Sequence record: NC_049819.1
DNA length: 50,732 nt
Direction: 5' to 3' (one strand)
Origin: Escherichia phage atuna
In this document: piece after piece, positions 2,319-49,827 of the stretch
How the letters are laid out: every line of letters begins with the position of its first letter
How positions within the stretch are numbered: the stretch's first letter is position 1
The notes under the pieces: model-generated
What the model was told of the DNA's origin: nothing
Database searches by the model: none
What the model saw: only the letters and a program-made list of their open reading frames with translations
Program-made: the position numbers and the translations under genes

Positions 2319-2338
2319 TTTTAACAAAAAGTGCTATT
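2319..2338 (-). promoter_or_regulatory. Conserved intergenic motif copy (exact AATAGCACTTTTTGTTAAAA on minus strand) + hairpin + ATAAT
   Basis: Exact 20-mer; followed on minus strand by hairpin cgcccggcctagtgtcgggc and ATAATT 23 nt after TTGTTA. Confidence 0.55.
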
Positions 2339-2594
2339 AGTGGATCATTCCGTGCTGAAAATTCCACGAATCGACAAACTCTTGCATGTCATTTCTGATT
2401 TGTTCGTGCCATTTTTCAAGCGGGAGTTTTCTTGTCTCCTCAAAGCTCATATCTAATGCGCTTGAAAATTCCCACGGATCGCAATCAATCATCTTTTTCA
2501 CGTTAGGGTTTTTATCAAGTGCATCGCACACCATAGCGCGAAATAACAACCACTCGCCAGTTTCATTTAAATAAACGCTTCTCTCTTTTTCCAT
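2337..2594 (-). CDS. Hypothetical protein (85 aa)
   Basis: ORF with stop embedded in conserved motif. Confidence 0.45.
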   Translation of the reverse strand: MEKERSVYLNETGEWLLFRAMVCDALDKNPNVKKMIDCDPWEFSSALDMSFEETRKLPLEKWHEQIRNDMQEFVDSWNFQHGMIH

Positions 2595-2598
2595 CGTG

Positions 2599-3351
2599 TT
2601 AGCTCCGTTTGCGTGCGCGACGTTCGGTTACAGAAGGGCAAATATCGCTGATCTTAACGTATCGCGTTTTCTGCTCCTCGCCTTCTTTAAGTTTGCGCAT
2701 GACAAAAATCACGCTTCCCTTGTTGTTGCCCTGCACAGGCTCGCCAGTCAATCCAGACACAAAGGCGATTCTTCCGGTGCGGGAGTATTCTACTCCACCC
2801 TCTTCGTAAACCTCGCCAGTGATCCAGATGATTTCAGCCGCGTTTTTCTGCGCCTCATAAAACCATGCTGTAGAGTTGTCTGCTGGCAACAAAACATCAA
2901 TTTGGTTGTTGTGCTCCATTTGCTCAATTGCTTTCTTGATAAATGGAGTTGGGTTGCTGTACGGCGGGTTAAGCCACACGTGCTTGTTGCTACCCCACCA
3001 ACGCTTTAAGCAGTTTGTCTCCTTGCTATAGAACTTCTCGCAAACTGCGTTTTCCTGGCTTGCTGCCGCGTCGAGATCGTATTCACCAAATTCTGATTCC
3101 ATCCACTCCACGATCTCTTGAGGTGTGCTCCACATATCGCGCACAACGTCCGGCGTAGTGCTTCCAGCGTATCGGTTTCCGCTTACCTTATAATATTGAT
3201 TTGGCTTTACTGCCTGGTAATGGCCTCCAGTTGCAAGGGCATTCCCTATAAACGTTTCTCTCTCCAACTGCTCAAAGCTAACGAATGCGTTATGGGTGTC
3301 TTTATCTAAAATATCTTTAGCCATTTTCATTTCTCCGCTATTAAAAGCCAT
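2599..3351 (-). CDS. dam: DNA N6-adenine methyltransferase (phage Dam-type)
   Basis: WLNPPYS catalytic motif (N/DPPY) in 250-aa protein; position next to helicase/VRR-NUC as in T1-like phages; GATC specificity is inferred, not seen. Confidence 0.7.
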   Translation of the reverse strand: MAFNSGEMKMAKDILDKDTHNAFVSFEQLERETFIGNALATGGHYQAVKPNQYYKVSGNRYAGSTTPDVVRDMWSTPQEIVEWMESEFGEYDLDAAASQENAVCEKFYSKETNCLKRWWGSNKHVWLNPPYSNPTPFIKKAIEQMEHNNQIDVLLPADNSTAWFYEAQKNAAEIIWITGEVYEEGGVEYSRTGRIAFVSGLTGEPVQGNNKGSVIFVMRKLKEGEEQKTRYVKISDICPSVTERRARKRS

Positions 3352-3389
3352 CTCGTGTTATTGAATTATGGCGCAATCCATCGCGCCAG

Positions 3390-3409
3390 TTTTAACAAAA
3401 AGTGCTATT
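3390..3409 (-). promoter_or_regulatory. Conserved intergenic motif copy (exact) + hairpin + ATAAT upstream of methyltransferase gene
   Basis: Exact 20-mer; minus-strand hairpin ctggcgcgatggattgcgcc then ATAATT at 23-nt spacing. Confidence 0.55.
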
Positions 3410-3824
3410 TAAGCATGTATTCAATAGCCAACTTAAACTGATTGAATCCGTAGGCTACCGCAGCGAATCCTCCTAAGCTGCGAACGCGACGCAAAAAAGC
3501 CTTTTGTTCATCGCTGACTGGTGATGCTTTCCCCTTGCCTGATTTATTCACTCGTTTGATCTCAATCGCTGCAAAGGGGTATTTTCCGTTTAAACCAATC
3601 AGGATGATGAAATCGCTTACTCCCTTAACCAAGCCGGACTGCTGATCAATCATCGCCGTTGCTTTAGACTTCTCATTCTCGTTTACCGTATGCCACGCCA
3701 GCAAATAAGGATGAGCATAAGTCAACCACTGAAAACTATCTATCTGGTGATTAACTTCCCTTCTCGTGTCGGTTGGATCCCTTTCGTAAAACTCAAGATA
3801 ATCGCCTTTATCAGTTATAGCCAT
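3405..3824 (-). CDS. VRR-NUC domain nuclease
   Basis: AIEIKRVNKSGKGKASPVSDEQKAFLRRVRSLGGFAAVAYGF resembles VRR-NUC E-x-K core; 139 aa. Confidence 0.55.
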   Translation of the reverse strand: MAITDKGDYLEFYERDPTDTRREVNHQIDSFQWLTYAHPYLLAWHTVNENEKSKATAMIDQQSGLVKGVSDFIILIGLNGKYPFAAIEIKRVNKSGKGKASPVSDEQKAFLRRVRSLGGFAAVAYGFNQFKLAIEYMLK

Positions 3825-5821
3825 TAAACAAACTCCCGTTTTGCAATGTTATCCTCACCTTTGCCGTTTTTGCGATGCGTTACGCGTACAGGAGGCATGA
3901 TGTGATGAGCGTATGACATTATTTTACGCGCATTTCTATAGCTCGCCACCATACCAGCAATCTTGCGATCCGGTATGTGCTGCAATGCTATTTTTCTCCA
4001 TATCGTCCGGCAAATGTTGCTTTCTGACTCAGGGAAAAATCTTTCGTATGCCTTGAACGTGTCGCCGTTGGCCTCAAGCTCATAGCAAAAAACAATTCCT
4101 TTCTGGTTTTTCGTCATATCAACGCGGAAAGATTTAACGTTGCACCAATCGTTTTTGGTGTAGTGCTTGCCGCTTAACTTCTCGTTAGGATCGACAAGAG
4201 AAATATCGCAACAACGGCAAACTCTCGCCACTACGTCGTTTTTTGTTCCGCAACCGCGCTTGATTATCTTTTTCGTTCTCGGATCTACCTGGTCCTCGCA
4301 AATTCTGTAAGTCCAAAAATGCTCGCATCTCTTCCCGTTATCGTCTACGTGCATACATCGGCGAGCGTAAAAGCTGTTTAGCGTTCCACATATCGGACAA
4401 GTCTTAGGCTCTTTCCCGTTTGTAAATCTCTTTTGGAATTGCGCTTGCTCAAGGATTGGATCGAAATACAAATCCCCTAACTCATCCATAGTACCAGCAA
4501 AATCCAATACAAGATGGTCTTTTTTCTTGAATCCCTGCTCAATGTGCCATTGCTTAAGCAGTCGCATACCGCGCCCCAAAAGCTGGATAAGCAATGTTAG
4601 AGATCCTATCTTTCTCAGTATTACAGAAGTATCCCAAAACGGAACGTTAACGCCAGTGGTAAGCGCCTGTACCTGGAAGATGTATTTTACTTTTCCCTCG
4701 TATGCCTCCCTCAGCCACTCTTTACGCTGATTGTCTCCAGTCTTGCCAGTTATGATCCTGTATTCAACGCCTGGCGGCAGTGCGGCGGCGGCCTCCTTGC
4801 AGTGTCTTTCCCCTGCGCATGTAACTAAAACTCCGTTCCTGTCTTTGCATATCTCATGGACTTTAGCCATGATTTTCTGTGTCATTGTTGCGTCTTGATG
4901 GATCTTTTCTTCCATCTTGCGCAATGTTTTAGCGTCAAAGTCTGAAACGCCATCCTCGCTACTGGCTTCGAACTCTGAAAGGTCATACCCCAGGTCGCCT
5001 ACGTCGCCGAAATTTGTTGGCACTACAGAACCGAATTTGATTAAGTAGTTTGTGTCTATGTTAGTCACCTGCTCACGCCAGAATCCCTTTTTGTTCTTAT
5101 CTTCAACCAGTATTGGAACCACGCCGCGAAATTCAGATCCAGTCATACCGAATATTCGCAATTCGTGCCCGTATGCCTCGCGACACCTGCGCATCATTTC
5201 CATGATTATTACCGTGTACTGTGTGCGTCCTGTTCCGAACATTGGATCGCCATTGGAATCAAATTGCTGTTCTTCTCCAATCAGTACAGGCAAATCCTTC
5301 TTAGTGGTCATCTGCTGGTAAGATTCATTATTTTCTATCGCGTCGGCGAGATCCTCCCAATCCACCTGGTGACATTCATCAATACCGATAACGTGCGGAA
5401 CATAATCACCTAACGACTTAAACAATCCGTTTACCACAGTGCCCTCAGAACCGACTACGATCGGAAAGTATGCGCTTTTTGTTTTCAGTCCGGCGCAATA
5501 GATTGAGTTTGGCACGCCAAGATTGCTGATCTCTTCTGAATCCTGATCAACAATTTCAGCCTGACGAGCAAGCACCATCATTTTCAATCCCATTTTGCGG
5601 CATTGCGCCGCAACCATCGCAAACATCAATGTTTTGCCAGCCGACACAGAAGCCTTAACAAAGAAAGGATGCTCATAGTTTTTCATGCGCTTTGCGATCT
5701 CGGCATACGCAACGCACTGATAAGGATAAGGCACTATATTGCCAACCGTGAATCGCTCTTGGATGCTTTTTATTACTGCCTCGCCTAACGCTGATATTTG
5801 TTTTTCGATATTTGGAATCAT
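3824..5821 (-). CDS. ATP-dependent SF2 helicase (DEAD/DEAH-like)
   Basis: Walker A SVSAGKT and motif II IDECHQ in 665-aa protein. Confidence 0.8.
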   Translation of the reverse strand: MIPNIEKQISALGEAVIKSIQERFTVGNIVPYPYQCVAYAEIAKRMKNYEHPFFVKASVSAGKTLMFAMVAAQCRKMGLKMMVLARQAEIVDQDSEEISNLGVPNSIYCAGLKTKSAYFPIVVGSEGTVVNGLFKSLGDYVPHVIGIDECHQVDWEDLADAIENNESYQQMTTKKDLPVLIGEEQQFDSNGDPMFGTGRTQYTVIIMEMMRRCREAYGHELRIFGMTGSEFRGVVPILVEDKNKKGFWREQVTNIDTNYLIKFGSVVPTNFGDVGDLGYDLSEFEASSEDGVSDFDAKTLRKMEEKIHQDATMTQKIMAKVHEICKDRNGVLVTCAGERHCKEAAAALPPGVEYRIITGKTGDNQRKEWLREAYEGKVKYIFQVQALTTGVNVPFWDTSVILRKIGSLTLLIQLLGRGMRLLKQWHIEQGFKKKDHLVLDFAGTMDELGDLYFDPILEQAQFQKRFTNGKEPKTCPICGTLNSFYARRCMHVDDNGKRCEHFWTYRICEDQVDPRTKKIIKRGCGTKNDVVARVCRCCDISLVDPNEKLSGKHYTKNDWCNVKSFRVDMTKNQKGIVFCYELEANGDTFKAYERFFPESESNICRTIWRKIALQHIPDRKIAGMVASYRNARKIMSYAHHIMPPVRVTHRKNGKGEDNIAKREFV

Positions 5822-5878
5822 CTTAAACCTTTAAAAAATGCCATTTGGAGTATATAATAGACTCATTACAATAAACTG

Positions 5879-5898
5879 TTTTAACAAAAAATGCTATG
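5879..5898 (-). promoter_or_regulatory. Conserved motif variant (TTTTAACAAAAAATGCTATG on plus) in divergent helicase / HTH-gene intergenic region
   Basis: Minus-strand reading gives motif then TATTAT 22 nt after TTGTTA, upstream of helicase; on plus strand the motif abuts the SD (GAGG) of gene 5909. Confidence 0.5.
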
Positions 5899-5908
5899 AG
5901 GTGACTAG

Positions 5909-6385
5909 ATGAAAGATGCACGAATTGCAGTATCTACTGGTGAGATCGACAAGCGCACTATTAACGGTAACAACGGAACGCGACGAGGTAAAGACAAAAA
6001 GCCACGAAAACACCGAACCGGATTTCTTATCCTGCGAGATGAGGTAAAAGCAAGCCTGAAATCTCGCCTTGACATTCTGATCGAGTATTACGGCGGTGTT
6101 CCTGCTATGGCCCGACGTCTGCGCGTATCTCAGCAAGTCGTTAACCAGTGGCGAAAGCGTGGTATGATTTCAGCCGCTGGAGCACAAAAGGTGCATAACG
6201 ACTACAAATATAATGGGTGCAAAGGATACCGCGCATCATTTTGTCGTCCAGATCTGCGGTTTGATTCTAACGGCAAGCCTCTTACTACCCGTTGCGACAA
6301 ATACGAAATGTTGCGCGTAGTCAAAAATTCAGACTACGAACCAGGCGGACGATTCTACAAAGGTGATAACAGCACGAATAGCTAA
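5909..6385 (+). CDS. HTH DNA-binding protein (Cro/YdaS-like motif)
   Basis: VPAMARRLRVSQQVVNQWRKRGMIS helix-turn-helix-like segment; SD gagg upstream. Confidence 0.5.
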   Translation: MKDARIAVSTGEIDKRTINGNNGTRRGKDKKPRKHRTGFLILRDEVKASLKSRLDILIEYYGGVPAMARRLRVSQQVVNQWRKRGMISAAGAQKVHNDYKYNGCKGYRASFCRPDLRFDSNGKPLTTRCDKYEMLRVVKNSDYEPGGRFYKGDNSTNS

Positions 6386-6392
6386 TGATAAG

Positions 6393-6428
6393 GCCCAGCG
6401 AAATGATAATATTTGCTGGGCTTTTTTA
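6393..6428 (+). terminator. Hairpin + T-run between HTH gene and primase-like gene
   Basis: gcccagcg...tgctgggc dyad followed by TTTTTTATT, then SD gagg and ATG 6441. Confidence 0.45.
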
Positions 6429-6440
6429 TTGAGGTTTGCC

Positions 6441-7370
6441 ATGAATACTGAAAACTTTATGACCTATCAGAAAGAAGATGTTTTACCATATATGAAGGGG
6501 TTATGGCGTGAAGCACTACAAAGCATTTGCGGACTGCATAGCGATGTTTTCAACAAAAAGCATCAGCCTTGCCCACACTGCGGCGGCAAGGATCGTTTTA
6601 GATGGACTGATAAGCTAAATGAAGAGGGCGACGGCGGCGCTATCTGCAACGTATGCGGTAACGACACGGGGATCGGTTGGTTAATGAAATTAACTGGCGA
6701 ACCTTACAGCGAGGCCATCAATATTTTGGGTCGCTTCCTCGGAAAAGTGCCGCAGGATTACAGGATCAGAGCAAACAAACGCGCTTCGCGTTCTTCTGGT
6801 TACTCGTTCGGGAAACAGGCAAGTCATGAATGCTGCGAAAAAGTGATGGCAAAAACATTAAAATTCGATCGCACACCTTTAAGCGTTTATGAGGGGATAT
6901 ATCCGACGGAAGGTTGTCATTATGATTGCGGCGTCAAGGATGGTCGATACATTCACGCGCTACCTTGTCACTTGGTGCATGATGACGGGCTTGATGATGA
7001 AATGTGTAACGTGCTTTTCATTGATGAGGATGGAAAGGATTGGTTTTTAGCTCGCGACTACACGCGCGGATCTGTTGTTAAAACAGGTAGCACAGATAAG
7101 ACGATCTATTTGTGCCTTGATTGGGTTGATTCCCAGCATGTTCATTTATCAACTGGTCAAGAGGTGTGGGCTTGCTTTACTCCTTCAAATCTTGAAATGG
7201 TTGCGCATAGATATAAAGGAGAAAGAAGAATGCGAGTAGTCTGCCGGAAAGATGATCGTGATGTGATAATCGCGGCAGAGGAAAGAGGTCTTGACATAAT
7301 GATGCCTGTTGACGATAATTTTAAACAGGGCGTAGAAAGAAAACTCTACAAGCCCGAATCACTACTATAA
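6441..7370 (+). CDS. Putative DNA primase-like protein with N-terminal zinc ribbon
   Basis: CPHCGG...CNVCG zinc-ribbon; start moved from 6363 to ATG 6441 (SD gagg; upstream region forms terminator hairpin); position between helicase and tail fibre. Confidence 0.5.
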   Translation: MNTENFMTYQKEDVLPYMKGLWREALQSICGLHSDVFNKKHQPCPHCGGKDRFRWTDKLNEEGDGGAICNVCGNDTGIGWLMKLTGEPYSEAINILGRFLGKVPQDYRIRANKRASRSSGYSFGKQASHECCEKVMAKTLKFDRTPLSVYEGIYPTEGCHYDCGVKDGRYIHALPCHLVHDDGLDDEMCNVLFIDEDGKDWFLARDYTRGSVVKTGSTDKTIYLCLDWVDSQHVHLSTGQEVWACFTPSNLEMVAHRYKGERRMRVVCRKDDRDVIIAAEERGLDIMMPVDDNFKQGVERKLYKPESLL

Positions 7371-7386
7371 AACTCCGCTAGTATTG

Positions 7387-7411
7387 CCCCGCTTATGCGG
7401 GGTTTTTTTTT
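7387..7411 (+). terminator. Rho-independent terminator after primase-like gene
   Basis: ccccgcttatgcgggg stem followed by T9. Confidence 0.75.
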
Positions 7412-7442
7412 GCATTTGAAAATGCTATTATCTGAATTGTCA

Positions 7443-7460
7443 TTAGCAAAAAGTGCTATT
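7443..7460 (-). promoter_or_regulatory. Conserved motif variant (TTAGCAAAAAGTGCTATT on plus) abutting tail-fibre SD; second partial copy at 7416-7430
   Basis: Sequence match to the 3' half of the motif, in inverted orientation relative to the downstream plus-strand gene. Confidence 0.4.
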
Positions 7461-7476
7461 TAGGAGGATTTTACAA

Positions 7477-12350: not shown

Positions 12351-12428
12351 TGCCCTTACGTTGGCTAAAATTTGCGCTAAATTTACGCCGTCTTAAATTC
12401 GATAACGCCGAAAAACAAAAAATAACAA

Positions 12429-12446
12429 GTAGCACTTTTTGCTAAA
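12429..12446 (+). promoter_or_regulatory. Conserved motif variant (GTAGCACTTTTTGCTAAA) + TATAGT upstream of lipoprotein gene
   Basis: Motif then TATAGT 21 nt after TTGCTA, then SD aaggag and ATG 12502. Confidence 0.5.
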
Positions 12447-12501
12447 CGCGCGCATTAAAATCGTGTATAGTTGAACCAACAACAACAAAGGAGATGAAAA
12501 G

Positions 12502-17120: not shown

Positions 17121-17168
17121 GACTTTTAACCTTTTGTGCTGTTTCTTGGTTTGCACATTATAAATGCA

Positions 17169-17197: not shown

Positions 17198-17674
17198 CTA
17201 CTTTCCGTGGTTTATGTGGAATTTGTTTAAAACTTCAATCTCTATCCTCTTTTCTGCCGCATCCTGAAATGAATCAAAGTAAAATTCATGCCTAACACCA
17301 TCAATCTTTGCTCTTGCAATCCATTTTCCGCGACTAAAGTTTACTCCAGTAATTCCCGTCTTGCTGTTCCTGTAAAGCGACTTATTCTTGTTGTTAACAC
17401 TCATTCTAACAAGTCTTAAGTTTGAAATATTGTCGTTCATTGTGTTGTGATCTATGTGATCAACTTGCATTCCATGCGGTATTTCTCCATTATGAATTTC
17501 CCAAACTATCCTGCTCCTGTAGTATCTTTCTCCATCAATTGATATTCTAACCCTTTCTCCACTCTTCTTGCTTTTGCTTACGCTTCCTGCCTCACTTCCT
17601 TTCTTTATCCTTCTTCCTACGTCTACAGCCCAAAATAACTTACCGTCATTATAATAAAAAATATCACGCCACAT
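17198..17674 (-). CDS. HNH homing endonuclease with AP2 DNA-binding domain
   Basis: HIDHNTMNDNISNLRLV (HNH) and GITGVNFSRGKWIARAKIDGVRHEFYFDSFQDAAEKR (AP2-like); ATG 17674 after AAGGAGGTG. Confidence 0.8.
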   Translation of the reverse strand: MWRDIFYYNDGKLFWAVDVGRRIKKGSEAGSVSKSKKSGERVRISIDGERYYRSRIVWEIHNGEIPHGMQVDHIDHNTMNDNISNLRLVRMSVNNKNKSLYRNSKTGITGVNFSRGKWIARAKIDGVRHEFYFDSFQDAAEKRIEIEVLNKFHINHGK

Positions 17675-17717
17675 GATCACCTCCTTAATTAATTGTAAAG
17701 CGAAAATCCGTTTTCGC

Positions 17718-17737
17718 TTTAACATATTGTGCTATTT
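17718..17737 (-). promoter_or_regulatory. Degenerate motif copy (AATAGCACAATATGTTAAA) + hairpin immediately upstream of HNH gene
   Basis: Motif with TTTTT replaced by AATAT, followed by aaagcgaaaacggattttcgcttt hairpin and SD. Confidence 0.45.
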
Positions 17738-23576: not shown

Positions 23577-23590
23577 CTCAAGATCTCCTT

Positions 23591-23609
23591 ATAGCACTTT
23601 TTGTTAAAA
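23591..23609 (+). promoter_or_regulatory. Conserved motif copy (ATAGCACTTTTTGTTAAAA), inverted relative to flanking minus-strand late genes; abuts SD of G-like gene
   Basis: Exact 19/20 match; plus-strand reading is followed 35-40 nt later by bidirectional hairpin aaggggcgcaacgcccctt + gtttt. Confidence 0.5.
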
Positions 23610-23675
23610 GTGGAATTGATTTATTTGATAGATTGATTTTACAGGAATGAAAAAAGGGGCGCAACGCCCCTTGTT

Positions 23676-24338
23676 TTAATTGATGTCGGAAGATAAGAAC
23701 GTAAATCTACCTTTCAGAGATACGGAAAGGGAAACAGTTTCCATTTCGTTCATAGTGGTTTGCGGAATGTCATTAAAGGACAATACGCCAGCCCAGCAAC
23801 GCATCTCTTTAGCTTTCGGAACATACATACGTAAAGCGGTTACGTCGCCGGATTCCTCAGCCTCGCGTAAGATCGGATAAATCGGATTATCATATTCATG
23901 CGCGAAAGTGTAGGTAAGAGAAACCGCGCTCTTGTAGGTCGGTAACTGCTGCTCCTGGTCATCAGCCAAACACTGATAAGTGTAATACTGTTGCTCGCCT
24001 CCGTCCTGCGCAAGATCCTGTACGCAAGGAATCTCTACCCATGATTTTACTTCTCGGAAGGTTGCTGTATTAGAACCAGCCGGAAACACGTTCTGATCGG
24101 TTGTGTCTACACCTTCAAGGGTAACACTTTCATTGTCGGTAACGGCCTTAACGCGCAACACGCGGCTAACCAACTTACCCCACGAAGACGTTTCAATCAG
24201 AACATAAGCACCCTTCTTGATATTTTTTGTGTCGGTCGCTGTAAATACAGGCTCATTAGCGTTAGTGATAGCCGTAGCCTGAATCGGATCGCCCATATTA
24301 ACGCCGATGAAAATTTGAGAACCATTAGGCAAGTGCAT
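23676..24338 (-). CDS. Major tail protein
   Basis: 220 aa, position upstream of G/T chaperones. Confidence 0.6.
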   Translation of the reverse strand: MHLPNGSQIFIGVNMGDPIQATAITNANEPVFTATDTKNIKKGAYVLIETSSWGKLVSRVLRVKAVTDNESVTLEGVDTTDQNVFPAGSNTATFREVKSWVEIPCVQDLAQDGGEQQYYTYQCLADDQEQQLPTYKSAVSLTYTFAHEYDNPIYPILREAEESGDVTALRMYVPKAKEMRCWAGVLSFNDIPQTTMNEMETVSLSVSLKGRFTFLSSDIN

Positions 24339-27297: not shown

Positions 27298-27343
27298 TTT
27301 GTTTCCTCCATAAAAAAGGCCGTTAAATGTAACGGCCTAGATG

Positions 27344-27361
27344 ATAGCACTTTTTGTTAAA
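27344..27361 (+). promoter_or_regulatory. Conserved motif copy inverted relative to capsid gene, with partial inverted partner at 27370-27386
   Basis: ATAGCACTTTTTGTTAAA then cgtgcaatg then tttttttATGCTATTAG; located between hairpin/T-run/SD of capsid gene and preceding stop. Confidence 0.45.
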
Positions 27362-27387
27362 CGTGCAATGTTTTTTTATGCTATTAG

Positions 27388-28170
27388 TTATTCGCCAGCG
27401 GTTTTCGTAAATACAATATCAAACTGGTCAGCAACTCCAGAACCATCATTAGCAGTCCAGTTGACGTTAACTCTACCTCCTACACCAGTAGGAACAACAA
27501 GACCTGTGCGGCTAACACTGGCAACACTTGGATCTTGTGGATTTGTAATTGTCCACTGACCAGTTTTGTCATCAGCCCAAGTTGGAACAACTGTTACCTT
27601 TAATTGAACGTTATTGATCGTCTCTGTTCCCTCTATGTATCCATTTTCAGCCTCAATGATCGCACCAGTGAGAAGATATTTTCTATGATAAAGCGGCGTT
27701 ATTCTGACTCCGACTATGTTTATTGTTTCATCAAACTTGTAGAAGTCACCAGTAAAAATCCAGCCATCGACGATTTCATCGCCATCACTCTTTGCTACAA
27801 AACCATCATTGTTAACATAAACAAGATCCCCATGCTCAGGGGGAGATTCAATTGTTTGAGTTACACACCATACAACACCTCTTGTCAAAATGTTGATGGC
27901 GTCTCCTTCCTTGTAGTCGGAATACCCGTCTTCCTCGTTAACTGTCGTTGTTATGTTGCTTCTTAGCGCAACACCCGCAACCACAGCACCACCCTCTTTG
28001 TGGTCAACAAATATGTTGTAGCCGTCGATTCTCTCCTTAAAGAAAACAACCTTACCAGCAATGATCGATTCAGAACCACAAACGCCAGTACCATCAATAT
28101 TGTAGCGAGTAGAATCAACCAAACAACCAGGGCAAGAAAGACCCATAACAGATGAATAATCTTTAGCCAT
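27388..28170 (-). CDS. Capsid-associated structural protein (decoration-like), paralog of 28221-28730
   Basis: N-terminal similarity to neighbour (MAK...S..YNIDG.GVC); position before capsid gene. Confidence 0.4.
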   Translation of the reverse strand: MAKDYSSVMGLSCPGCLVDSTRYNIDGTGVCGSESIIAGKVVFFKERIDGYNIFVDHKEGGAVVAGVALRSNITTTVNEEDGYSDYKEGDAINILTRGVVWCVTQTIESPPEHGDLVYVNNDGFVAKSDGDEIVDGWIFTGDFYKFDETINIVGVRITPLYHRKYLLTGAIIEAENGYIEGTETINNVQLKVTVVPTWADDKTGQWTITNPQDPSVASVSRTGLVVPTGVGGRVNVNWTANDGSGVADQFDIVFTKTAGE

Positions 28171-31919: not shown

Positions 31920-31970
31920 ATCTCCATAATAAAAAAAGGCTGGAAAAATCCAGCCTTGATTATATAACTT

Positions 31971-31990
31971 TTTAGCAATTAGTGCTATTT
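31971..31990 (-). promoter_or_regulatory. Motif variant (AATAGCACTAATTGCTAAAA) + TATAAT + hairpin/T-run upstream of portal gene
   Basis: Minus-strand reading: variant motif, TATATAAT, hairpin aaggctggatttttccagcctt, T7, ATTATGGAG, ATG. Confidence 0.5.
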
Positions 31991-36130: not shown

Positions 36131-36187
36131 TGCGCTTTCCTCTGTTTCGCTTCAATAAGGGCACTTTATCAAATGCCCCTGCGGAAG

Positions 36188-36207
36188 TTTTAACAAAAAG
36201 TGCTATT
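36188..36207 (-). promoter_or_regulatory. Conserved intergenic motif copy (exact) + hairpin
   Basis: Exact 20-mer; hairpin ggggcatttgataaagtgccc follows on minus strand; leader GAAGCGAAACAGAGG. Confidence 0.5.
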
Positions 36208-37426: not shown

Positions 37427-37482
37427 TGTAATTTCCTCTTGCTTGTTGATGTGCGCATTATAGCGGGGCAGATAACCCCGCG

Positions 37483-37502
37483 TTTAGCAATTCGTGCTAT
37501 TT
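37483..37502 (-). promoter_or_regulatory. Motif variant (AAATAGCACGAATTGCTAAA) + hairpin + TATAAT
   Basis: Minus strand: variant motif, hairpin cggggttatctgccccg, TATAAT 22 nt after TTGCTA, SD agagg, ATG 37426. Confidence 0.55.
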
Positions 37503-38926: not shown

Positions 38927-38982
38927 GATTTAATCCTAGTTTGTTGTTGATGGGCCTACTATACCGCAGGCCGTAAAGTTGA

Positions 38983-39002
38983 TTTTAACAAAAAGTGCTA
39001 TT
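38983..39002 (-). promoter_or_regulatory. Conserved intergenic motif copy (exact) + hairpin containing ATAGTA
   Basis: Exact 20-mer; ATAGTA 23 nt after TTGTTA on minus strand; leader CCCATCAACAACAAAC. Confidence 0.55.
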
Positions 39003-39297: not shown

Positions 39298-39353
39298 CGC
39301 CGTTTCCTCTTTCGTTGTTGATGGGCTTACTATACCGCAAGCCCGATAATCTG

Positions 39354-39373
39354 TTTTTGCAAAAAGTGCTATT
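39354..39373 (-). promoter_or_regulatory. Motif variant (AATAGCACTTTTTGCAAAAA) + hairpin containing ATAGTA
   Basis: Near-duplicate of module at 38983, including hairpin gggcttgcggtatagtaagccc. Confidence 0.5.
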
Positions 39374-40892: not shown

Positions 40893-40946
40893 CGCGTTTC
40901 CCATCTCGTTGAAAGTAGGGCCATTATACCTGGCCCCACATTTGAG

Positions 40947-40966
40947 TTTTAACAAAAAGTGCTATT
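40947..40966 (-). promoter_or_regulatory. Conserved intergenic motif copy (exact) + TATAAT
   Basis: Exact 20-mer; TATAAT 21 nt after TTGTTA on minus strand. Confidence 0.55.
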
Positions 40967-41352: not shown

Positions 41353-41409
41353 TTTTGTTTCCTCAATCTCGTTTCGATGAGGCTATTATGCCAGGCTTTG
41401 CGCCTGGCG

Positions 41410-41429
41410 TTTTAACAAAAAGTGCTATT
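41410..41429 (-). promoter_or_regulatory. Conserved intergenic motif copy (exact) + hairpin + ATAAT + leader CATCGAAACGAG
   Basis: Exact 20-mer, hairpin cgccaggcgcaaagcctggc, ATAAT 23 nt after TTGTTA. Confidence 0.55.
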
Positions 41430-42741: not shown

Positions 42742-42761
42742 AATAGCACTTTTTGTTAAAA
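42742..42761 (+). promoter_or_regulatory. Conserved intergenic motif copy (exact) + leader CATCGAAACGAA for rightward early arm
   Basis: Exact 20-mer about 60 nt upstream of ATG 42821. Confidence 0.55.
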
Positions 42762-42820
42762 CTCAGGCCACCTGATCGGGTACATTACACACATCGAAAC
42801 GAACCGCTCAGGAGATAGCA

Positions 42821-43782: not shown

Positions 43783-44046
43783 ATGAAAATTAATGCACCT
43801 ATTCCAGTTAAGCGCAAAGCACGTTTGCTCAATAACGGATGTTACGCCCTGCGGCCTGCATTTAAGGATCGCACATTTCCGGTTATCGTTAACGTGTCTC
43901 ACGTAAGCCGTAGCGGAAACCTGGTATTCGTTAAAGGTGAAGATCTGACGGCTCTTGGATTCTATGGCGGTGTTCACGGCGAAGCGCTCGGATTCTGGCT
44001 TGTGGATCCGTTAACTGGAGAGCGTGAAATCGAATTCCTGGACTAA
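43783..44046 (+). CDS. Hypothetical early protein (87 aa)
   Basis: SD TAAGGAG upstream. Confidence 0.45.
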   Translation: MKINAPIPVKRKARLLNNGCYALRPAFKDRTFPVIVNVSHVSRSGNLVFVKGEDLTALGFYGGVHGEALGFWLVDPLTGEREIEFLD

Positions 44047-44065
44047 ATAGCACTTTTTGTTAAAA
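44046..44065 (+). promoter_or_regulatory. Conserved intergenic motif copy (exact) + hairpin with TGGTATAGT + leader CATCGAAACGAAAC
   Basis: Exact 20-mer starting in the stop codon of upstream gene; TATAGT 22 nt after TTGTTA. Confidence 0.6.
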
Positions 44066-44123
44066 ACGATGCGCTGCTGATTGGTATAGTAAGCGCATCG
44101 AAACGAAACAGAGGATTTTCAAA

Positions 44124-44351: not shown

Positions 44352-44365
44352 CAGGAGATCAAAAA

Positions 44366-44773
44366 ATGGTATCGCAGTCTCTTAAATTCATTGGCGAAAA
44401 CACCAGTCACGCATGGACTTTCACAAAAGGCGCTGAATACGCCGTATTGCGCGATGAAAAATATGGCGATGAGTATGTTCTTGATGATTATCGCGAACCT
44501 CTTTACATCTCGCGTGACGATGATAACCGATTCTATGGCACTGGCTTTGAAAGTTACGCTTTCCGACCAGTATTTGAAGAGGAATTACGGCCTATTTACC
44601 GCGTAATTGCAACTAATCGCGAGAATGGACGGGCCACCCTTTGTTATGCAGGCCATTTTAAAAAGAGAGCGCAAAATTGCTACAATGGCCTGAAAGATAA
44701 AGAATCAATTATTCGCGATCATCGTGTGACGCTCCAGGAGTTGCGGCCAATCACTATCGACACCACGGAATAA
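44366..44773 (+). CDS. Hypothetical early protein (135 aa)
   Basis: ORF with SD caggag. Confidence 0.5.
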   Translation: MVSQSLKFIGENTSHAWTFTKGAEYAVLRDEKYGDEYVLDDYREPLYISRDDDNRFYGTGFESYAFRPVFEEELRPIYRVIATNRENGRATLCYAGHFKKRAQNCYNGLKDKESIIRDHRVTLQELRPITIDTTE

Positions 44774-44792
44774 AAAGCACTTTTTGTTAAAA
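44773..44792 (+). promoter_or_regulatory. Motif variant (AAAAGCACTTTTTGTTAAAA) + hairpin with TGGTATATT + leader CATCGACAACAAAC
   Basis: 19/20 match, same architecture as 44046. Confidence 0.55.
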
Positions 44793-44848
44793 GTCGTATG
44801 CGGTAAGTTGGTATATTTACCGCATCGACAACAAACGAGGATTTAAAG

Positions 44849-45539: not shown

Positions 45540-45647
45540 GGCTATTTATTTTCAAAAACGCTTGGATGGTGGCGGTTGCAAATGACCATTACGGCGGCGA
45601 CGGAAAAAGAGCGCCACGTCATTCATATTTCAATTGAGGATATTTAA

Positions 45648-45875
45648 ATGAAAGCAAAAGTTTTAAACATTATGGCAACTATTGACGCTCATCACCGCGT
45701 GGCTGTAAAACTTGATAAGTCCTGCGGAATTAGCCAAATCACTATCACCGAGGGCAAAGGCGGCTATCTTATTGGTATCCATCCAGGCGGTAAGGTGCGC
45801 AAATACAATAAAGATCAGGTAAAAGAATTACTGGAAGAAAACGCTTTCTATATTCAAAGTTGGCGCTCTCTTTAA
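45648..45875 (+). CDS. Hypothetical early protein (75 aa)
   Basis: ORF. Confidence 0.45.
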   Translation: MKAKVLNIMATIDAHHRVAVKLDKSCGISQITITEGKGGYLIGIHPGGKVRKYNKDQVKELLEENAFYIQSWRSL

Positions 45876-45883
45876 TTAATCTG

Positions 45884-45904
45884 GCGGCGTTTTGCCGCCT
45901 TTTA
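45884..45904 (+). terminator. Hairpin + T-run (possible attenuating terminator)
   Basis: ggcggcgttttgccgcc followed by TTTT, then SD gaggtgg. Confidence 0.45.
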
Positions 45905-45917
45905 AATGAGGTGGAAA

Positions 45918-46034
45918 ATGATAGATAAAGCTATTGATTTCTTTTTTTATTCGATTATTGGCGCGGTTGGTTTTTTGGTTACTGCTGCTGGCCTGGCTAT
46001 TATCTTGGCTGTTATTAAGGGAGTTATGCGATGA
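45918..46034 (+). CDS. Small membrane peptide (38 aa), not in ORF track
   Basis: ATG after GAGGTGG; hydrophobic FFFYSIIGAVGFLVTAAGLAIILAVI; stop overlaps next start (ATGA). Confidence 0.3.
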   Translation: MIDKAIDFFFYSIIGAVGFLVTAAGLAIILAVIKGVMR

Positions 46035-46255
46035 GTCAGGACGGTTTTTTTGAGCGCCTTCAAATGGCAGAAGATGCCGGACTAAATAAAGAGGCGGCGC
46101 TTGAAGTGGCATATAAAATTAAGACTCTTGATGAGGCTTTAGGTGATATGGATATGGATCTTGAATCAAGCGCAATATTTGCAGATCCCACTATGATTGT
46201 TAATGATTGTGGATGCGATTTCGATCCTAGTTGTCCGCGCTGTTTTCCGTTTTGA
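46031..46255 (+). CDS. Small acidic protein (74 aa)
   Basis: Asp/Glu-rich, C-terminal Cys cluster CGCDFDPSCPRC; coupled to downstream methyltransferase-like gene. Confidence 0.45.
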   Translation: MSQDGFFERLQMAEDAGLNKEAALEVAYKIKTLDEALGDMDMDLESSAIFADPTMIVNDCGCDFDPSCPRCFPF

Positions 46256-46265
46256 GGTAATGACG

Positions 46266-46976
46266 ATGTATAAAGGTTTAATATTCTCCCTATTTGATGG
46301 ATCTGGTAAAGCCGTTAAAGATTGGGCTGATAATGGATATAAGTGCATTTGCTTTAATGCTGACGGTGGCGATCACGGTGATTACCAGTCAGTGCGCATA
46401 CAGCATGAGAATATCGAATACGTTAACGTCTGGATTGATGAAAGATTTTACCACCGCGCGCGCTGGGAGGAATGGGGCATTCCTGACTTTATTATGGCAT
46501 TTCCGCCGTGCACCGACCTTGCAAATAGCGGATCTCGCCATTGGGCCAAAAAACGCCTTGAGAATCCATCGTTCCAGGATGAGGCCGCCGACACTTGCAG
46601 AATCGCGGCTGATATAGCTGATTATTTCGGTGTTCCTTACATGATCGAAAATCCGGTTGGCAAGTTGTCAACGTTATGGCGAAAGCCTGATTATACGTTC
46701 CATCCGTGCGATTACGCTGGCTATCTGCCGGAAGATGATAAACATCCCGACTTCCCTGATATTATTCCGGCACGGGATCGCTATTTTAAGAAAACGTGCC
46801 TCTGGACTGGCAACGGCTTTGTTATTCCTCCTCGCGCTTTAATCCTGCCGAAAGAGGAAGACAAAGATAATCCAGGCTGGGCCAAAACTGGCGGTAAGTC
46901 ATCGCGCACAAAGATGATCCGCTCCCTCACTCCGCGCGGCTTTGCTCGCGCCGTCTTTGAGTCAAACTCAAAATAG
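46266..46976 (+). CDS. C5-cytosine methyltransferase-like protein (compact, about 237 aa)
   Basis: Motif I IFSLFDGSG, motif IV-like FPPC (catalytic Cys), motif VI-like ENPVG; no obvious large target-recognition domain; start ATG 46266 chosen for SD spacing. Confidence 0.55.
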   Translation: MYKGLIFSLFDGSGKAVKDWADNGYKCICFNADGGDHGDYQSVRIQHENIEYVNVWIDERFYHRARWEEWGIPDFIMAFPPCTDLANSGSRHWAKKRLENPSFQDEAADTCRIAADIADYFGVPYMIENPVGKLSTLWRKPDYTFHPCDYAGYLPEDDKHPDFPDIIPARDRYFKKTCLWTGNGFVIPPRALILPKEEDKDNPGWAKTGGKSSRTKMIRSLTPRGFARAVFESNSK

Positions 46977-46991
46977 CACTTTTTGTTAAAA
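46972..46991 (+). promoter_or_regulatory. Conserved intergenic motif copy (exact) + hairpin + CATAAT + leader CACATCGAACAAAC
   Basis: Exact 20-mer overlapping stop of upstream gene; ATAAT 23 nt after TTGTTA. Confidence 0.6.
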
Positions 46992-47045
46992 GCCAGGTGT
47001 AAAAACCTGGCATAATCACATCGAACAAACAAAGGAGATCTGATC

Positions 47046-47432
47046 ATGAATGTTATCTGTAATGAAACCAACGTATTGATGAAAGGCCGTTTTAAAACGG
47101 TTTATCAGAAGATTGCAGGAAGTGATGATGTGATCGAGGTGGAAGAGTTCCAGGTTAAGACGCTTGTTAAGGGTAGCCGCTGGCTTCCAGCAAACCGAGA
47201 TGATTACCGCGCCATTAACACAAAAACCGTTCTTTGCACGTTTGTAGATCATAACATGCCGTGCAAAAAGCACTTTAAGCAGGGCAAGCGATACCAGATC
47301 GAGAAAGGGCGACCGCTTGGAAGCGTTGCGGGTTATGTTTTTGATGAGTGCGGCGACCGCTGGAACCTGTACCGTGAAGAGGTCGGATTCTCTGCTGGCG
47401 GCTGTTATCTGTTTGAGGGCAAATATCTGTGA
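47046..47432 (+). CDS. Hypothetical early protein (128 aa)
   Basis: ORF with SD aaggag. Confidence 0.45.
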   Translation: MNVICNETNVLMKGRFKTVYQKIAGSDDVIEVEEFQVKTLVKGSRWLPANRDDYRAINTKTVLCTFVDHNMPCKKHFKQGKRYQIEKGRPLGSVAGYVFDECGDRWNLYREEVGFSAGGCYLFEGKYL

Positions 47433-47650
47433 TAAACAGTGAAAACCGTTACAAAGTAACGCATTCTACCACAAAGACTTTCAAGCCTGGCGATATAGTC
47501 AGGCCCATCAAAAAAACGGCGGTAGGTTGGCTGATTGGTTTTTCATATCATAAGGCGCTTTACTTTACGTTTAAGGATGGGATTACAGGAGAATGCTACA
47601 GCGACCGCCAGCCTGATCGACTTCTGGTTGCAATAGAGCGGATCAAATAG
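47429..47650 (+). CDS. Hypothetical early protein (73 aa)
   Basis: ORF, ATGA coupling. Confidence 0.45.
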   Translation: MINSENRYKVTHSTTKTFKPGDIVRPIKKTAVGWLIGFSYHKALYFTFKDGITGECYSDRQPDRLLVAIERIK

Positions 47651-47665
47651 CACTTTTTGACAAAA
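47646..47665 (+). promoter_or_regulatory. Motif variant (AATAGCACTTTTTGACAAAA) + hairpin upstream of P-loop NTPase operon
   Basis: Variant creates exact TTGACA; hairpin tgggccgttaaaatttacggccca follows. Confidence 0.55.
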
Positions 47666-47718
47666 CGGGGTAGTATTGGGCCGTTAAAATTTACGGCCCA
47701 CAAAGGAGAAGCTAACGA

Positions 47719-49299
47719 ATGTTTTCATTAGAAACGAACAAATTAACTCCACAGCAAATAATCGCTATGGCTGAAAGCCAGAACCTTTCACCAGTTCGCG
47801 TATCAATTCAGGCTAACGGCTATCGCCAGTCGTCCAGCTTTTGGGGCGACGTGAAGGATGTAAATAGCGGTCACGATCGCTACCCCGTAATTTCTCTTGG
47901 TAATGATATTGATGTTGTCGGCAAGCTATCACGCAGTATTGCGCGATCCGTTCAATTCCCTGAATCATCGGCTTACATGCACTTTATCGGCTGCATTTCT
48001 GCCGCCATGCTTGGACGCTTTACGGTTGACTATCACGGGACCGATCAGCCGACTGCGCTTTACGTAGTTACAAGCCAGCCGCCGTCAACTGGTAAATCTG
48101 CGATCAACAGTATGGCTATTGCTCCGATGATTGCGGAAGTTGAGAAGATCAACGAGCAACGCCGCAAGGAAAGAAAGAAAATACAGGCAAAGTTGGCAGG
48201 TCTTGCAAAGGAGATGAAAAGCGAAAGATCAGGCGCTGATATGGAATCTCTATACCAGGAAAAAGAGGATCTGGAGGAGAAGCTGGAAAAGATGTGTGAT
48301 ATAACTTTCCCTGTTTCAGATACAACTCCAGAAGGCTTGGCAAAAATCAACAACAAGCAAGGTAACTTTGCCGTAATATCTGACGAAGCAACAAGTATTA
48401 ACAGTCTGTTAGGCTTGACCTATGCCAATAGCGAAAGGAAGACTAACAGTGAGCTAGTGCTTAAGGCGTGGGATAATGGTCACGTATCAATTGCCCGTGC
48501 TAATGCTGACAATAACATGAGTTTTCGCGCGCTTGGATGTATGAGCGTTATAGCCCAGGATGAAACGATAAGCGGAATCATGGATGCTGGATCTCGCGGT
48601 ATCGGTGTGAGTGAGCGCTTTTTGTTGGTCCGTGAGGAATCATTCTTAGGCCGTCGCTCATTCATTGATGAAAATGGTGATTCTACCTATGAGGCGGTGG
48701 ATCCTGAATTGAAGGCCCAATATTATCAATTGGTGCATAACATCATGAGCGAATCAAATATATCGCTGAAAATAAGCCGTTCAGCTATGCGAGTGCTCAA
48801 CATTGCTCGCCAGGATATGGAACCGCATCTTGCAGACGGCGGAAAGTATTCTCATACAATGTTACGCGGTGCGCTGGGTAAAATGGATAAACAGGTGATC
48901 AGGCTTGCTTCCGTCCTGCATGTTATCCGCAACTGGTTTAATCCTGCCGGATACCCGCAGAAGTCGAAAGAGATCGACGTGGAAACAATGCAAGAGGCGC
49001 TGATCATGTTTCAGGAATTGAGCAAAACATACATTAGCGCCGCCAATGCTTCTGGTTATGCTGGTGATGATGCTGAAATGGGTAAATTGATTGAATTGAT
49101 CACTAGACACGGCAAGGCTAATAAAGGGATTCTGAATATCCGCGCCCTGTACGAATCAGCGAGAAAGGTAAAACCTTTCGTTGGTCAGGCTGGCGTAATG
49201 AAGAGGATAGAGGGGCACTTGCTGCCAATGCTGGAAGAAAGAAATTATGTTTGCGTGATTAATGGTGTTATTTTTGTCAATCCAATACTGCTGGGATGA
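47719..49299 (+). CDS. P-loop NTPase-like protein of unknown function (526 aa)
   Basis: Degenerate Walker A PPSTGKS and Walker B-like FAVISDEAT; internal coiled-coil; largest early-arm gene. Confidence 0.55.
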   Translation: MFSLETNKLTPQQIIAMAESQNLSPVRVSIQANGYRQSSSFWGDVKDVNSGHDRYPVISLGNDIDVVGKLSRSIARSVQFPESSAYMHFIGCISAAMLGRFTVDYHGTDQPTALYVVTSQPPSTGKSAINSMAIAPMIAEVEKINEQRRKERKKIQAKLAGLAKEMKSERSGADMESLYQEKEDLEEKLEKMCDITFPVSDTTPEGLAKINNKQGNFAVISDEATSINSLLGLTYANSERKTNSELVLKAWDNGHVSIARANADNNMSFRALGCMSVIAQDETISGIMDAGSRGIGVSERFLLVREESFLGRRSFIDENGDSTYEAVDPELKAQYYQLVHNIMSESNISLKISRSAMRVLNIARQDMEPHLADGGKYSHTMLRGALGKMDKQVIRLASVLHVIRNWFNPAGYPQKSKEIDVETMQEALIMFQELSKTYISAANASGYAGDDAEMGKLIELITRHGKANKGILNIRALYESARKVKPFVGQAGVMKRIEGHLLPMLEERNYVCVINGVIFVNPILLG

Positions 49300-49691
49300 T
49301 TATGTTTTTGCTTGATCTGTATAAATGGTGTGAGTCATACGACTGGTTTAACAGGCAGCACATAGCCAAATTTATCTATCAGCATAGAGAATGTGAGCGG
49401 CTCGCACGGGCCGCCGGACTTACTCCGCGAATGTTCTCCAGCCTTACATCTAAGGAATTTTGCGCAAGAATGATGACGGCTGGCTATATAGATGGGGTCT
49501 GCGGTAAATACTGGTCCAAAGGATCGTCAAAGCGGCCTTTCGGATTCGAATTGTATAGCCTGGATGGTATGCGCAACGACTGGGTCAGGGATATGGCTAG
49601 AATAGGGGAGATGGGCGATGATGAATTGTTCCAGGCAAAAGCTAATAGACAAGATCTTGAAGCACTGCGCCGTAAATTCAATATCACATGA
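49296..49691 (+). CDS. Hypothetical protein (131 aa), coupled to P-loop NTPase gene
   Basis: Start overlaps upstream stop (ATGA). Confidence 0.45.
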   Translation: MIMFLLDLYKWCESYDWFNRQHIAKFIYQHRECERLARAAGLTPRMFSSLTSKEFCARMMTAGYIDGVCGKYWSKGSSKRPFGFELYSLDGMRNDWVRDMARIGEMGDDELFQAKANRQDLEALRRKFNIT

Positions 49692-49807
49692 GGATTTTAT
49701 TCATGCTTTACTTACGCTACTTTATTCAGATATGCGCGCTTTTAGCACCACTGAACATGTTTTATGCAATGATGATGGTGTATTACTGGTTACGGTAAAG
49801 CGTATGG

Positions 49808-49827
49808 AATAGCATTTTTTGTTAAAA
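49808..49827 (+). promoter_or_regulatory. Motif variant (AATAGCATTTTTTGTTAAAA) + hairpin + leader CATCGAAACGAAAT
   Basis: Hairpin cgcccggcctagtgtcgggt is the inverted counterpart of the hairpin at 2300-2318. Confidence 0.55.

Follow-up and report, generated by a model that had tools for sequence, protein, structure and literature searches.

The genome of Escherichia phage atuna (NC_049819.1; 50,732 nucleotides, the full length of which is hereafter referred to as the window) contains 21 copies of an intergenic motif, AATAGCACTTTTTGTTAAAA, which, as judged from the sequence, are units of promoter modules with predicted transcription starts. With moderate confidence, positions 2–21 of this motif (ATAGCACnnnTTGYTAAAn) can be identified as a putative marbox, the site of the host activators MarA, SoxS and Rob, placed relative to the −10 hexamer as in the class II promoters of that regulon. 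Phage atuna is a Warwickvirus-like member of the Drexlerviridae, with 97–99% identity to phages tiwna, MikeNSara and FritzSarasin. The repeat has already been published; its reading as a set of class II marbox promoters is, within the literature searched, newly made.

Promoter modules in phage atuna and its relatives

Nineteen copies of the motif with no more than three mismatches were found in the window, against an expectation of 0.01 from shuffled sequences, and two more, at 17717 and 37482, had four and five mismatches, respectively. The count of at least 21 copies given in the initial annotation was thus upheld; all these copies are present, but several had been placed 1–2 nt away from their actual positions (7441, 12428, 17717, 23590, 27343, 31970 and 37482). 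Twelve copies lie on the minus strand and nine on the plus strand. The motif is co-oriented with the downstream gene in 18 of the 21 cases, and the three other copies (7441 on the minus strand, 23590 and 27343 on the plus strand) oppose the local genes. Variation is mostly central: TAGCAC-N3-TTGYTAAA is kept (ATAGCAC-N3-TTGYTAAA for the complete core), and the TTT in the middle can be replaced by GAA, TAA or AAT. The motif frequently overlaps the stop codon of the upstream gene (e.g. TAA at 2339–2337), as had been described previously.

A module alignment anchored on the motif was generated for 121 copies from six Drexlerviridae genomes: the window, T1, TLS, Rtp, Rogue1 and the Klebsiella phage KP36. 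The last five represent four subfamilies and the unassigned genus Webervirus and contain 16–23 copies each, confirming that the motif is kept in five further genera. The best −10-like hexamer starts exactly 19 nt past the motif in 88 of the 121 copies, and 18–20 nt past it in 103; an xAxxxT hexamer is found at 18–20 nt in 108 copies, versus 21% at random positions. The corresponding value for the window is 18 of 21 copies, the hexamer starting 22 nt after the TTGTTA block. The positions of highest information content 3' of the motif are A−11 (1.3 bit), T−7 (1.0 bit) and G−14 (0.9 bit). G−14 is present in 80% of the modules and TG in 39%, and the seventh nucleotide past the hexamer is an A in 81%, this being the A of the CATCGAAACGA-type leader. 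That A−11, T−7, G−14 and A+1 are the best conserved positions 3' of the motif bears out the earlier reading of these units as promoter modules. The leader, which had also been described as conserved, was found as exact CATCGAAACGA in only four window copies, with CATC(G/A)A(A/C)A variants in five more. No −35 hexamer was detected 16–18 bp from the −10 (mean best match 2.6/6 over the three spacings). The 22-bp spacer between TTGTTA and the −10 rules out TTGTTA as the −35 of a −35/−10 pair, in agreement with the previous remark that this distance is unfit for such a pair. No transcription start-site data for T1-like phages were found in the literature searched.

The initial annotation suggested that the element was undescribed, but it was published in 2024. 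A re-annotation of phage TLS reported 18 intergenic 21-nt repeats (consensus aaATAGCACnnnTTGnTAAAA), oriented with transcription and lying about 76 nt 5' of start codons, together with similar repeats in T1, Rtp and Rogue1 (PMC11447400). These direct repeats of TLS and the motif are one element, and they share the orientation rule and the spacing of about 76 nt to start codons. Stoperators, enhancer sites and UP elements were the functions guessed for them, function being listed as an open question, and in silico searches identified only three sigma70-like promoters in TLS (PMC11447400). The repeat was linked neither to a −10 at fixed spacing nor to a marbox (PMC11447400). A literature search for the exact motif sequence returned only an unrelated paper. 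About 20–40 INPHARED records labelled as Campylobacter jejuni phages, including MG065679.1 (A13a), MG065643.1 (E6), MG065657.1 (C4) and MG065681.1 (A139), are T1-like genomes of 47–50 kb with 77–80% identity to the window and 11–12 motif copies; the host label is probably wrong and the phages enterobacterial.

Marbox likeness and class II geometry

The marbox (soxbox) consensus for MarA, SoxS and Rob of E. coli is AYnGCACnnWnnRYYAAAYn (PMC2064960, PMC3709825), and a definition derived from chromatin immunoprecipitation sequencing is gcannwwntgnnaaa (PMC12052159). The window copies have 0–2 mismatches at the 14 specified positions of the former, and 20 of the 21 match the latter perfectly. Perfect matches to the latter number 21 in the 50.7 kb of the phage versus seven in 183 kb of E. 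coli K-12, a density about 11 times higher in the phage; three of the six E. coli sites with no more than one mismatch from the classical consensus are those of micF, mar and fumC. The asymmetric positions specified by the marbox are the conserved phage positions A2, C8, Y15, A18 and A19. These positions break the TAGCA/TGCTA dyad and would not be explained by a symmetric dimer site, and the GCA...TGC dyad is already contained in the marbox consensus.

A position weight matrix (PWM) constructed from the 121 phage copies only was scanned over the fetched regions of E. coli K-12. The top score, both among the roughly 100,000 positions of the micF region and among all 365,756 positions pooled, fell on the micF marbox, in register and forward. 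The marRAB marbox had the second-best score of its 50-kb region, and the zwf and fumC boxes came first among 12,000 and fifth among 70,000 positions, respectively; there was no positive score in the ilvIH control region, which holds an Lrp site with one mismatch. This test and the geometry of the modules set the marbox apart from the partial resemblances to Lrp and sigma54 sites. Two look-alikes were rejected. The sigma54 promoter (TGGCAC-N5-TTGCW) has invariant GG and GC, whereas the phage TAGCAC-N3-TTGY has AG and a spacing 2 bp shorter, and a boxA resemblance (TTTAACAA) is on the reverse strand, the wrong one relative to the genes.

In strain MG1655, 18 bp separate the micF marbox, ACAGCACTGAATGTCAAAAC, from the TAGAAT that follows, and the 5' end of the RNA is annotated 8 nt past this hexamer. 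The phage modules agree with micF both in forward orientation and in the 18 bp from box to hexamer, the box being forward in every module with a −10, and the centre of the box lies at about −40.5 to −41, counted from the putative start at the conserved A. Class II marbox promoters have a normal −10 and start without a recognisable −35. Their box, forward in orientation, overlaps the −35 position (PMC12052159), with sites clustering near −41 (PMC10268841; about −41 for RamA on micF, PMC8811837), and sigma70 is displaced from the −35 at micF (PMC10268841). Given the shared orientation, spacing, centre and missing −35, the phage geometry is that of canonical class II MarA/SoxS/Rob promoters, rather than non-canonical as initially stated. 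The earlier proposal of an UP element or an activator-binding site stands in its second part: the motif looks like an activator site replacing the −35, but its most conserved positions are G/C and its T-tract is replaceable (GAA, TAA, AAA), which is not the pattern of an UP element.

The modules share with the class II MarA/SoxS/Rob (RamA) promoters of Enterobacteriaceae, such as micF, a 20-bp asymmetric forward box with GCAC and YAAA, positioned over the −35, centred at about −41 and separated by 18 bp from a canonical sigma70 −10. They differ in belonging to a virulent phage, where some 20 almost identical copies close to the consensus occur per 50 kb, the host sites being scattered and degenerate, and in carrying a GC hairpin between box and start and a common A/C-rich leader. 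Lambda cI at OR2/PRM and class II CRP/FNR likewise involve an activator at −41.5/−42 in contact with sigma region 4 where the promoter's −35 is poor, but these proteins act as dimers on palindromes, whereas the phage site is asymmetric and directional, as expected for a monomer with two helix-turn-helix (HTH) units. In T4 middle promoters, the −35 is also replaced by a protein-bound box 5' of a sigma70 −10. However, the MotA box, (a/t)(a/t)(a/t)TGCTTtA, has its centre at −30, is spaced 11–13 bp from the −10 and requires MotA and AsiA. The atuna motif differs in sequence and lies 19 nt from the −10, and neither protein was seen among the Pfam families listed for the 74 open reading frames (ORFs) of the window, so the MotA analogy drawn previously does not extend to membership. 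The stoperators of mycobacteriophage L5 are also numerous short asymmetric intergenic sites oriented with transcription, but they are repressor sites of a temperate phage with no fixed promoter geometry, whereas phage atuna is virulent and its sites lie at a fixed distance from the −10.

Hairpins, individual modules and copies in other phages

The hairpins noted in the initial annotation are a separate and real component of the modules. A hairpin of −12 kcal/mol or stronger is present within 45 nt past the motif in 14 of the 21 window copies, and the mean z-score of this interval relative to shuffles is −2.3 over the 121 modules, with 52% of the values below −2. Two arrangements were observed: the hairpin is placed after the box and before the hexamer (e.g. 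2319, 41410 and 46972), or its arms flank the hexamer, leaving the −10 in the loop (e.g. 38983, 39354, 44046 and 47646). Orthologous helicase promoters retain the hairpin with unrelated stems (GGGCCGT/ACGGCCC, GTTGCCG/CGGCAAC, GGTTGGCC/GGCCAACC, TGCGG/CCGCA, GACGG/CCGTC and AGCGG/CCGCT). In a formal covariation analysis, only four of the seven pairs show double changes, as MAFFT mis-registers stems offset by 1–2 nt; the stems are clearer sequence by sequence. In two IMG/VR contigs from distant relatives (L038 and L039), the helicase promoter lacks the marbox and retains a GC hairpin whose loop holds a −10-like TAATAT (GGCGGTG taatatt CACCGCC), indicating that conservation of the hairpin does not depend on the motif. 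Several module hairpins are annotated as rho-independent terminators in the T1 record. A U-tract directly 3' of the hairpin is found only at 31970 and in two copies from the Klebsiella Slopekvirus pR7_1, the tail elsewhere being AUAAU-like or CAUCGAAAC. With low confidence, we suggest that the hairpins act on the read-through RNA of the upstream gene as a leaky terminator or end-stabiliser, and that they are packed into the sole sequence-neutral stretch of a very compact promoter; a role in promoter melting would be an alternative.

The modules, the copies departing from the common arrangement and the regulator gene located beside one of them are as follows (window coordinates; starts are predicted).

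2287..2338 (−): module; motif 2319–2338 on the upstream TAA stop; hairpin; CATAAT 2294–2299; putative start ~2287; predicted to drive a small ORF starting at 2261
3358..3409 (−): module; motif 3390–3409; hairpin GGCGC/GCGCC; CATAAT 3365–3370; putative start ~3358; predicted to drive the Dam methylase gene
5847..5898 (−): module; motif 5879–5898 (CATAGCATTTTTTGTTAAAA); TATTAT 5854–5859; predicted to drive the helicase gene 3824–5821
5909..6385 (+): Cro/YdaS-like HTH "transcriptional regulator" gene (T1 gp23 family); context and possible rival reader of the motif
7441..7460 (−): orphan copy AATAGCACTTTTTGCTAATG; no −10 at 18–20 nt; between the primase terminator and the Shine-Dalgarno sequence (SD) of the tail-fibre gene, opposing both
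12428..12478 (+): module; motif 12428–12447; TATAGT 12466–12471 (18-nt spacing); putative start ~12478; predicted to drive a three-gene plus-strand block from 12502
17685..17736 (−): module; motif 17717–17736 (AATAGCACAATATGTTAAAG); TACAAT 17692–17697; predicted to drive the HNH endonuclease gene 17198–17674
23590..23641 (+): antisense-pointing module; motif 23590–23609; TGnTAGATT 23629–23634; putative start ~23641, facing a bidirectional terminator
27343..27387 (+): antisense-pointing copy 5' of the major capsid gene; motif 27343–27362; weak TGcTATTAG at 19 nt
31936..31989 (−): atypical copy between the terminase and portal genes; motif 31970–31989; intrinsic-terminator-like hairpin and T-run ~31936–31957; no properly spaced −10
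36156..36207 (−): module; motif 36188–36207; hairpin; TGaTAAAGT 36163–36168; putative start ~36156; ATG 36130
37450..37501 (−): module; motif 37482–37501 (AATAGCACGAATTGCTAAAC, 0 mismatches relative to the classical marbox); hairpin; TATAAT 37457–37462; putative start ~37450; ATG 37426
38951..39002 (−): module; motif 38983–39002; hairpin GGCCT/AGGCC with TATAGT 38958–38963 in the loop; putative start ~38951; ATG 38926
39322..39373 (−): module; motif 39354–39373; hairpin with TATAGT 39329–39334 in the loop; putative start ~39322; ATG 39297
40916..40966 (−): module; motif 40947–40966; hairpin GGGCC/GGCCC around TATAAT 40923–40928; putative start ~40916
41378..41429 (−): module; motif 41410–41429; hairpin; TGgCATAAT 41385–41390; putative start at the A of CATCGAAACGA, ~41378; ATG 41352
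42742..42793 (+): module, first of the rightward early block; motif 42742–42761; TACATT 42781–42786; putative start at the A of CATCGAAACGA, ~42793; ATG 42821
44046..44097 (+): module; motif 44046–44065; hairpin around TGgTATAGT 44085–44090; putative start ~44097 (CATCGAAACGA); ATG 44124
44773..44824 (+): module; motif 44773–44792; 11-bp hairpin around TGgTATATT 44812–44817; putative start ~44824; ATG 44849
46972..47023 (+): module; motif 46972–46991 on the stop of the Dcm gene; hairpin; TGgCATAAT 47011–47016; putative start ~47023; ATG 47046
47646..47697 (+): module; motif 47646–47665; hairpin GGGCCGT/ACGGCCC with TAAAAT 47685–47690 in the loop; predicted to drive the DNA helicase gene 47719–49299
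49808..49859 (+): module; motif 49808–49827; hairpin as in module 2319; TATATT 49847–49852; putative start ~49859 (CATCGAAACGA); ATG 49889

The positions of several unusual copies are kept in related phages. The orphan copy at 7441 has counterparts in T1 (34901, plus strand) and Rtp (33761, plus strand). The antisense-pointing positions of the late region are retained across subfamilies, that of 23590 in T1 (18832, minus strand) and that of 27343 in T1 (15068, minus strand) and TLS (15024, minus strand). The 23590 module would yield an RNA of about 45 nt ending at the bidirectional terminator (window 23590–23685), and antisense or interference promoters are a possible role for both this module and that at 27343 (27343–27400). 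The motif at 5879–5898 abuts, with its 5' end, the SD of the divergent Cro-like regulator gene, a position kept in T1, TLS, Rtp, Rogue1 and KP36. The divergent helicase and regulator genes share an 87-bp region (5822–5908), in which a possible promoter on the opposite strand, TTTAAA-17-TATAAT, overlaps the AT-rich −10 (TATTATATA) belonging to the motif promoter; with such an opposite-strand promoter, the 5' untranslated region of the regulator would hold the motif in reverse, a possible switch. A degenerate copy, AACAGCACAAAAGGTTAAAA, at 17124–17143 (minus strand) lies immediately 5' of the ATG of the tail-tip (J-like) gene, its AAGG being the SD, and is kept in T1 (25020, plus strand) and TLS (24907, plus strand).

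Some modules appear to be mobile. The HNH gene (17198–17674, minus strand) is inserted between tail genes and is not found at this place in phage tiwna, and the HNH genes rtp20 and rtp40 of Rtp are likewise preceded by a motif module. Modules 2319 and 49808 have an identical hairpin sequence, cgcccggcctagtgtcggg (window 2300–2318 and 49828–49846), which suggests that entire modules were recently duplicated or recombined within the genome. Full modules, with motif, hairpin, TATAGT at 19 nt, CATCGAAACGAAAC leader, SD and ATG, were also found in T4-like phages of Klebsiella, Enterobacter and Cronobacter, with five in the Klebsiella Slopekvirus pR7_1 (OP684128.1; L012 19646–19740 and 20001–20075, L013 34754, L014 21051 and 21683) and two in the Cronobacter Pseudotevenvirus GAP161 (L011 401 and 773); other phages of about 175 kb have 2–5 exact motif copies. 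These Straboviridae modules sit 5' of small early-region ORFs. In two pR7_1 copies, a true terminator lies between the motif and the −10, and the spacing is about 29–30 nt, i.e. about one helical turn longer. The presence of modules in Straboviridae suggests cassette exchange between phage families, and the HNH gene with its own module (17717) and the hairpin shared by 2319 and 49808 fit this picture of a portable promoter cassette.

Candidate readers of the motif and consequences of a possible host control

The mechanism considered most likely, and moderately probable, is that host MarA/SoxS/Rob activate about 18 phage promoters in the class II mode; starts, binding and dependence are inferred. 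Each motif copy would be the upstream half of a sigma70 promoter without a −35, its marbox being bound by a monomer of the host AraC-family protein MarA, SoxS or Rob (RamA in Klebsiella, Salmonella and Enterobacter). With the forward box 18 bp 5' of a −10 hexamer often bearing G or TG at −14/−15, in the micF-type class II arrangement, the bound activator would, as it does at micF, stand in for the −35 contact and hold RNA polymerase by way of sigma region 4 and the C-terminal domain (CTD) of alpha. The phage would thereby fire about 18 early and middle promoters, serving small early genes, both helicases, Dam and the inserted HNH gene, through a pre-existing host activator, which would solve the question of how the very first phage genes are transcribed. 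Rob, constitutive and abundant, is the obvious candidate for the basal factor, to which MarA, SoxS and RamA may add under drug, bile or oxidative stress. The hosts of the module-bearing phages are all Enterobacterales, carrying Rob, MarA, SoxS and/or RamA. The phages do not appear to supply such an activator themselves: no MarA homologue was found in seven phage genomes by tblastn (best E 0.48), and there was no AraC-type domain among the Pfam families listed for the 74 window ORFs.

HTH proteins encoded by the phage were put forward as possible readers in the initial annotation. One of its two candidates, ORF 640–1905, is a phosphoesterase/exonuclease homologue, for which a sigma70_r4 hit is spurious and below threshold. 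The other, the Cro-like regulator (5909–6385), is conserved in the family and is the sole recognisable DNA-binding regulator in the window. It could bind the motif as a dimer on the imperfect palindrome TAGCA-N5-TGCTA and then serve in class II activation, like lambda cI at OR2/PRM (centre −42), or shut the early promoters off in the manner of a Cro repressor. The marbox likeness would then be coincidental, or the site would be used by the host activator early and by the phage repressor later. The 5-bp inverted repeat in the motif is consistent with this possibility, as are the perfect palindromes (TAGCACGAATTGCTA) common in T1, TLS, Rtp, Rogue1 and KP36, the motif copy abutting the regulator's own SD in all six genera, as autoregulation would predict, and a conservation of the motif exceeding the needs of the marbox consensus. 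We nevertheless consider it unlikely. The dyad is broken at high-information positions (A2/A18, C8/T12 and invariant G5/Y15) and its GCA...TGC part belongs to the marbox consensus anyway, and a symmetric dimer would not need a fixed orientation relative to the −10. The presumed recognition helix varies by genus (SQQVVNQW, SNQTVQGW, NLKTVWGW and TPQAVEEW), whereas the motif is invariant, and the complete genome of pR7_1 (176,880 bp), with its intact modules, has no homologue of this regulator or of MarA. Finally, the earliest genes could not start if the first promoters required a phage protein.

The other alternatives dispense with a phage protein. It is improbable that the motif is a factor-independent element, read by RNA polymerase through an UP-like alpha CTD contact or a displaced −35 and boosting extended −10 promoters. 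Its AT-richness, with T and A tracts, would suit such a role, and the frequency of G−14 makes basal activity without a −35 plausible; T1-like phages grow well in unstressed cells, and the published screens (for one of them, its main text) gave no host-factor hit. However, the best conserved bases are G and C (GCAC and TG; top information at G5, C6, A7, C8 and G14) rather than A/T tracts, the central T-tract is freely replaced, and TTGYTA, placed 22 bp from the −10, presents the wrong face of the helix to sigma region 4. An UP element proper, with A/T tracts at −59 to −38 and no conserved G/C, was rejected on its conservation pattern and its span, that of the motif being about −51 to −32. Still less probable is a unit acting mainly at the RNA level, with the AU-rich motif and GC hairpin as an intercistronic signal for processing, termination or stability and the −10-like hexamer incidental. 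The highly significant hairpins, their compensatory changes at the helicase promoter, the terminators annotated in T1 and the true terminators 3' of the motif at 31970 and in pR7_1 argue for this view, but most hairpins lack a U-tract, A−11, T−7, G−14 and A+1 keep their distance from the motif whether the hairpin precedes or surrounds the hexamer, a DNA-binding consensus matches the motif itself, and RNA roles have no need of an 18-bp rule. Binding by another host protein, such as Lrp, is the least probable alternative. The Lrp consensus YAGHAWATTWTDCTR fits TAGCA-N5-TGCTA, and TAGCACTTTTTGCTA matches 13 of its 15 positions (consensus from PMC5554404; comparison by reading). However, the commoner TGTTA form has three mismatches (12/15), the conserved A2, C8, A18 and A19 are left unexplained, the phage PWM had no positive score in the ilvIH region even though real marboxes were found, and no known Lrp promoter has a fixed −41 geometry.

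Several observations weigh against activation by MarA, SoxS and Rob. The degenerate marbox consensus is easily matched, and partial resemblance to Lrp and sigma54 sites was also found; the sodA and fpr marboxes were not recovered with the phage-only PWM; and 3–4 copies (7441, 23590, 27343 and 31970) are unfit for a simple promoter role. The phage box is far stricter than host marboxes, including at the N positions of the consensus and in the flanks, which hints at an additional or different reader; very high affinity is another possible reason. T1-like phages multiply very rapidly in unstressed laboratory cells. Such cells contain little MarA and SoxS, and most of their Rob is aggregated (PMC10268841). 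A Keio screen of the T1-like phage LL5 reported tolC, lipopolysaccharide genes, ppiB and secB, but not rob, marA or soxS, and the main text of a preprint on a 255-phage screen makes no mention of these three genes. The redundancy of the three activators, together with basal activity from G−14/TG, may have hidden them in such screens; this is still a real objection.

If promoter activation by host MarA, SoxS and Rob is indeed the mechanism, it would supply the missing promoters of a very common family of coliphages and Klebsiella phages and answer the question left open for TLS (PMC11447400). Quite possibly, T1-like phages and the mobile promoter-gene cassettes of some T4-like phages have wired nearly all of their early and middle transcription to host MarA/SoxS/Rob/RamA. 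Phage gene expression would then be linked to the regulon behind intrinsic antibiotic resistance and tuned by the cell's exposure to drugs, bile or oxidative stress, and clinical mutants overproducing MarA, RamA or SoxS would be better hosts. Relatives using TolC, such as TLS, would exploit the same regulon twice, for their receptor and for their promoters. The hairpins embedded in the promoters, often with the −10 in the loop, could form a second layer. This organization would bear on phage-antibiotic combinations and on host-range prediction in marR, ramR and soxR mutants, and the compact modules would be usable as portable, inducible promoters.

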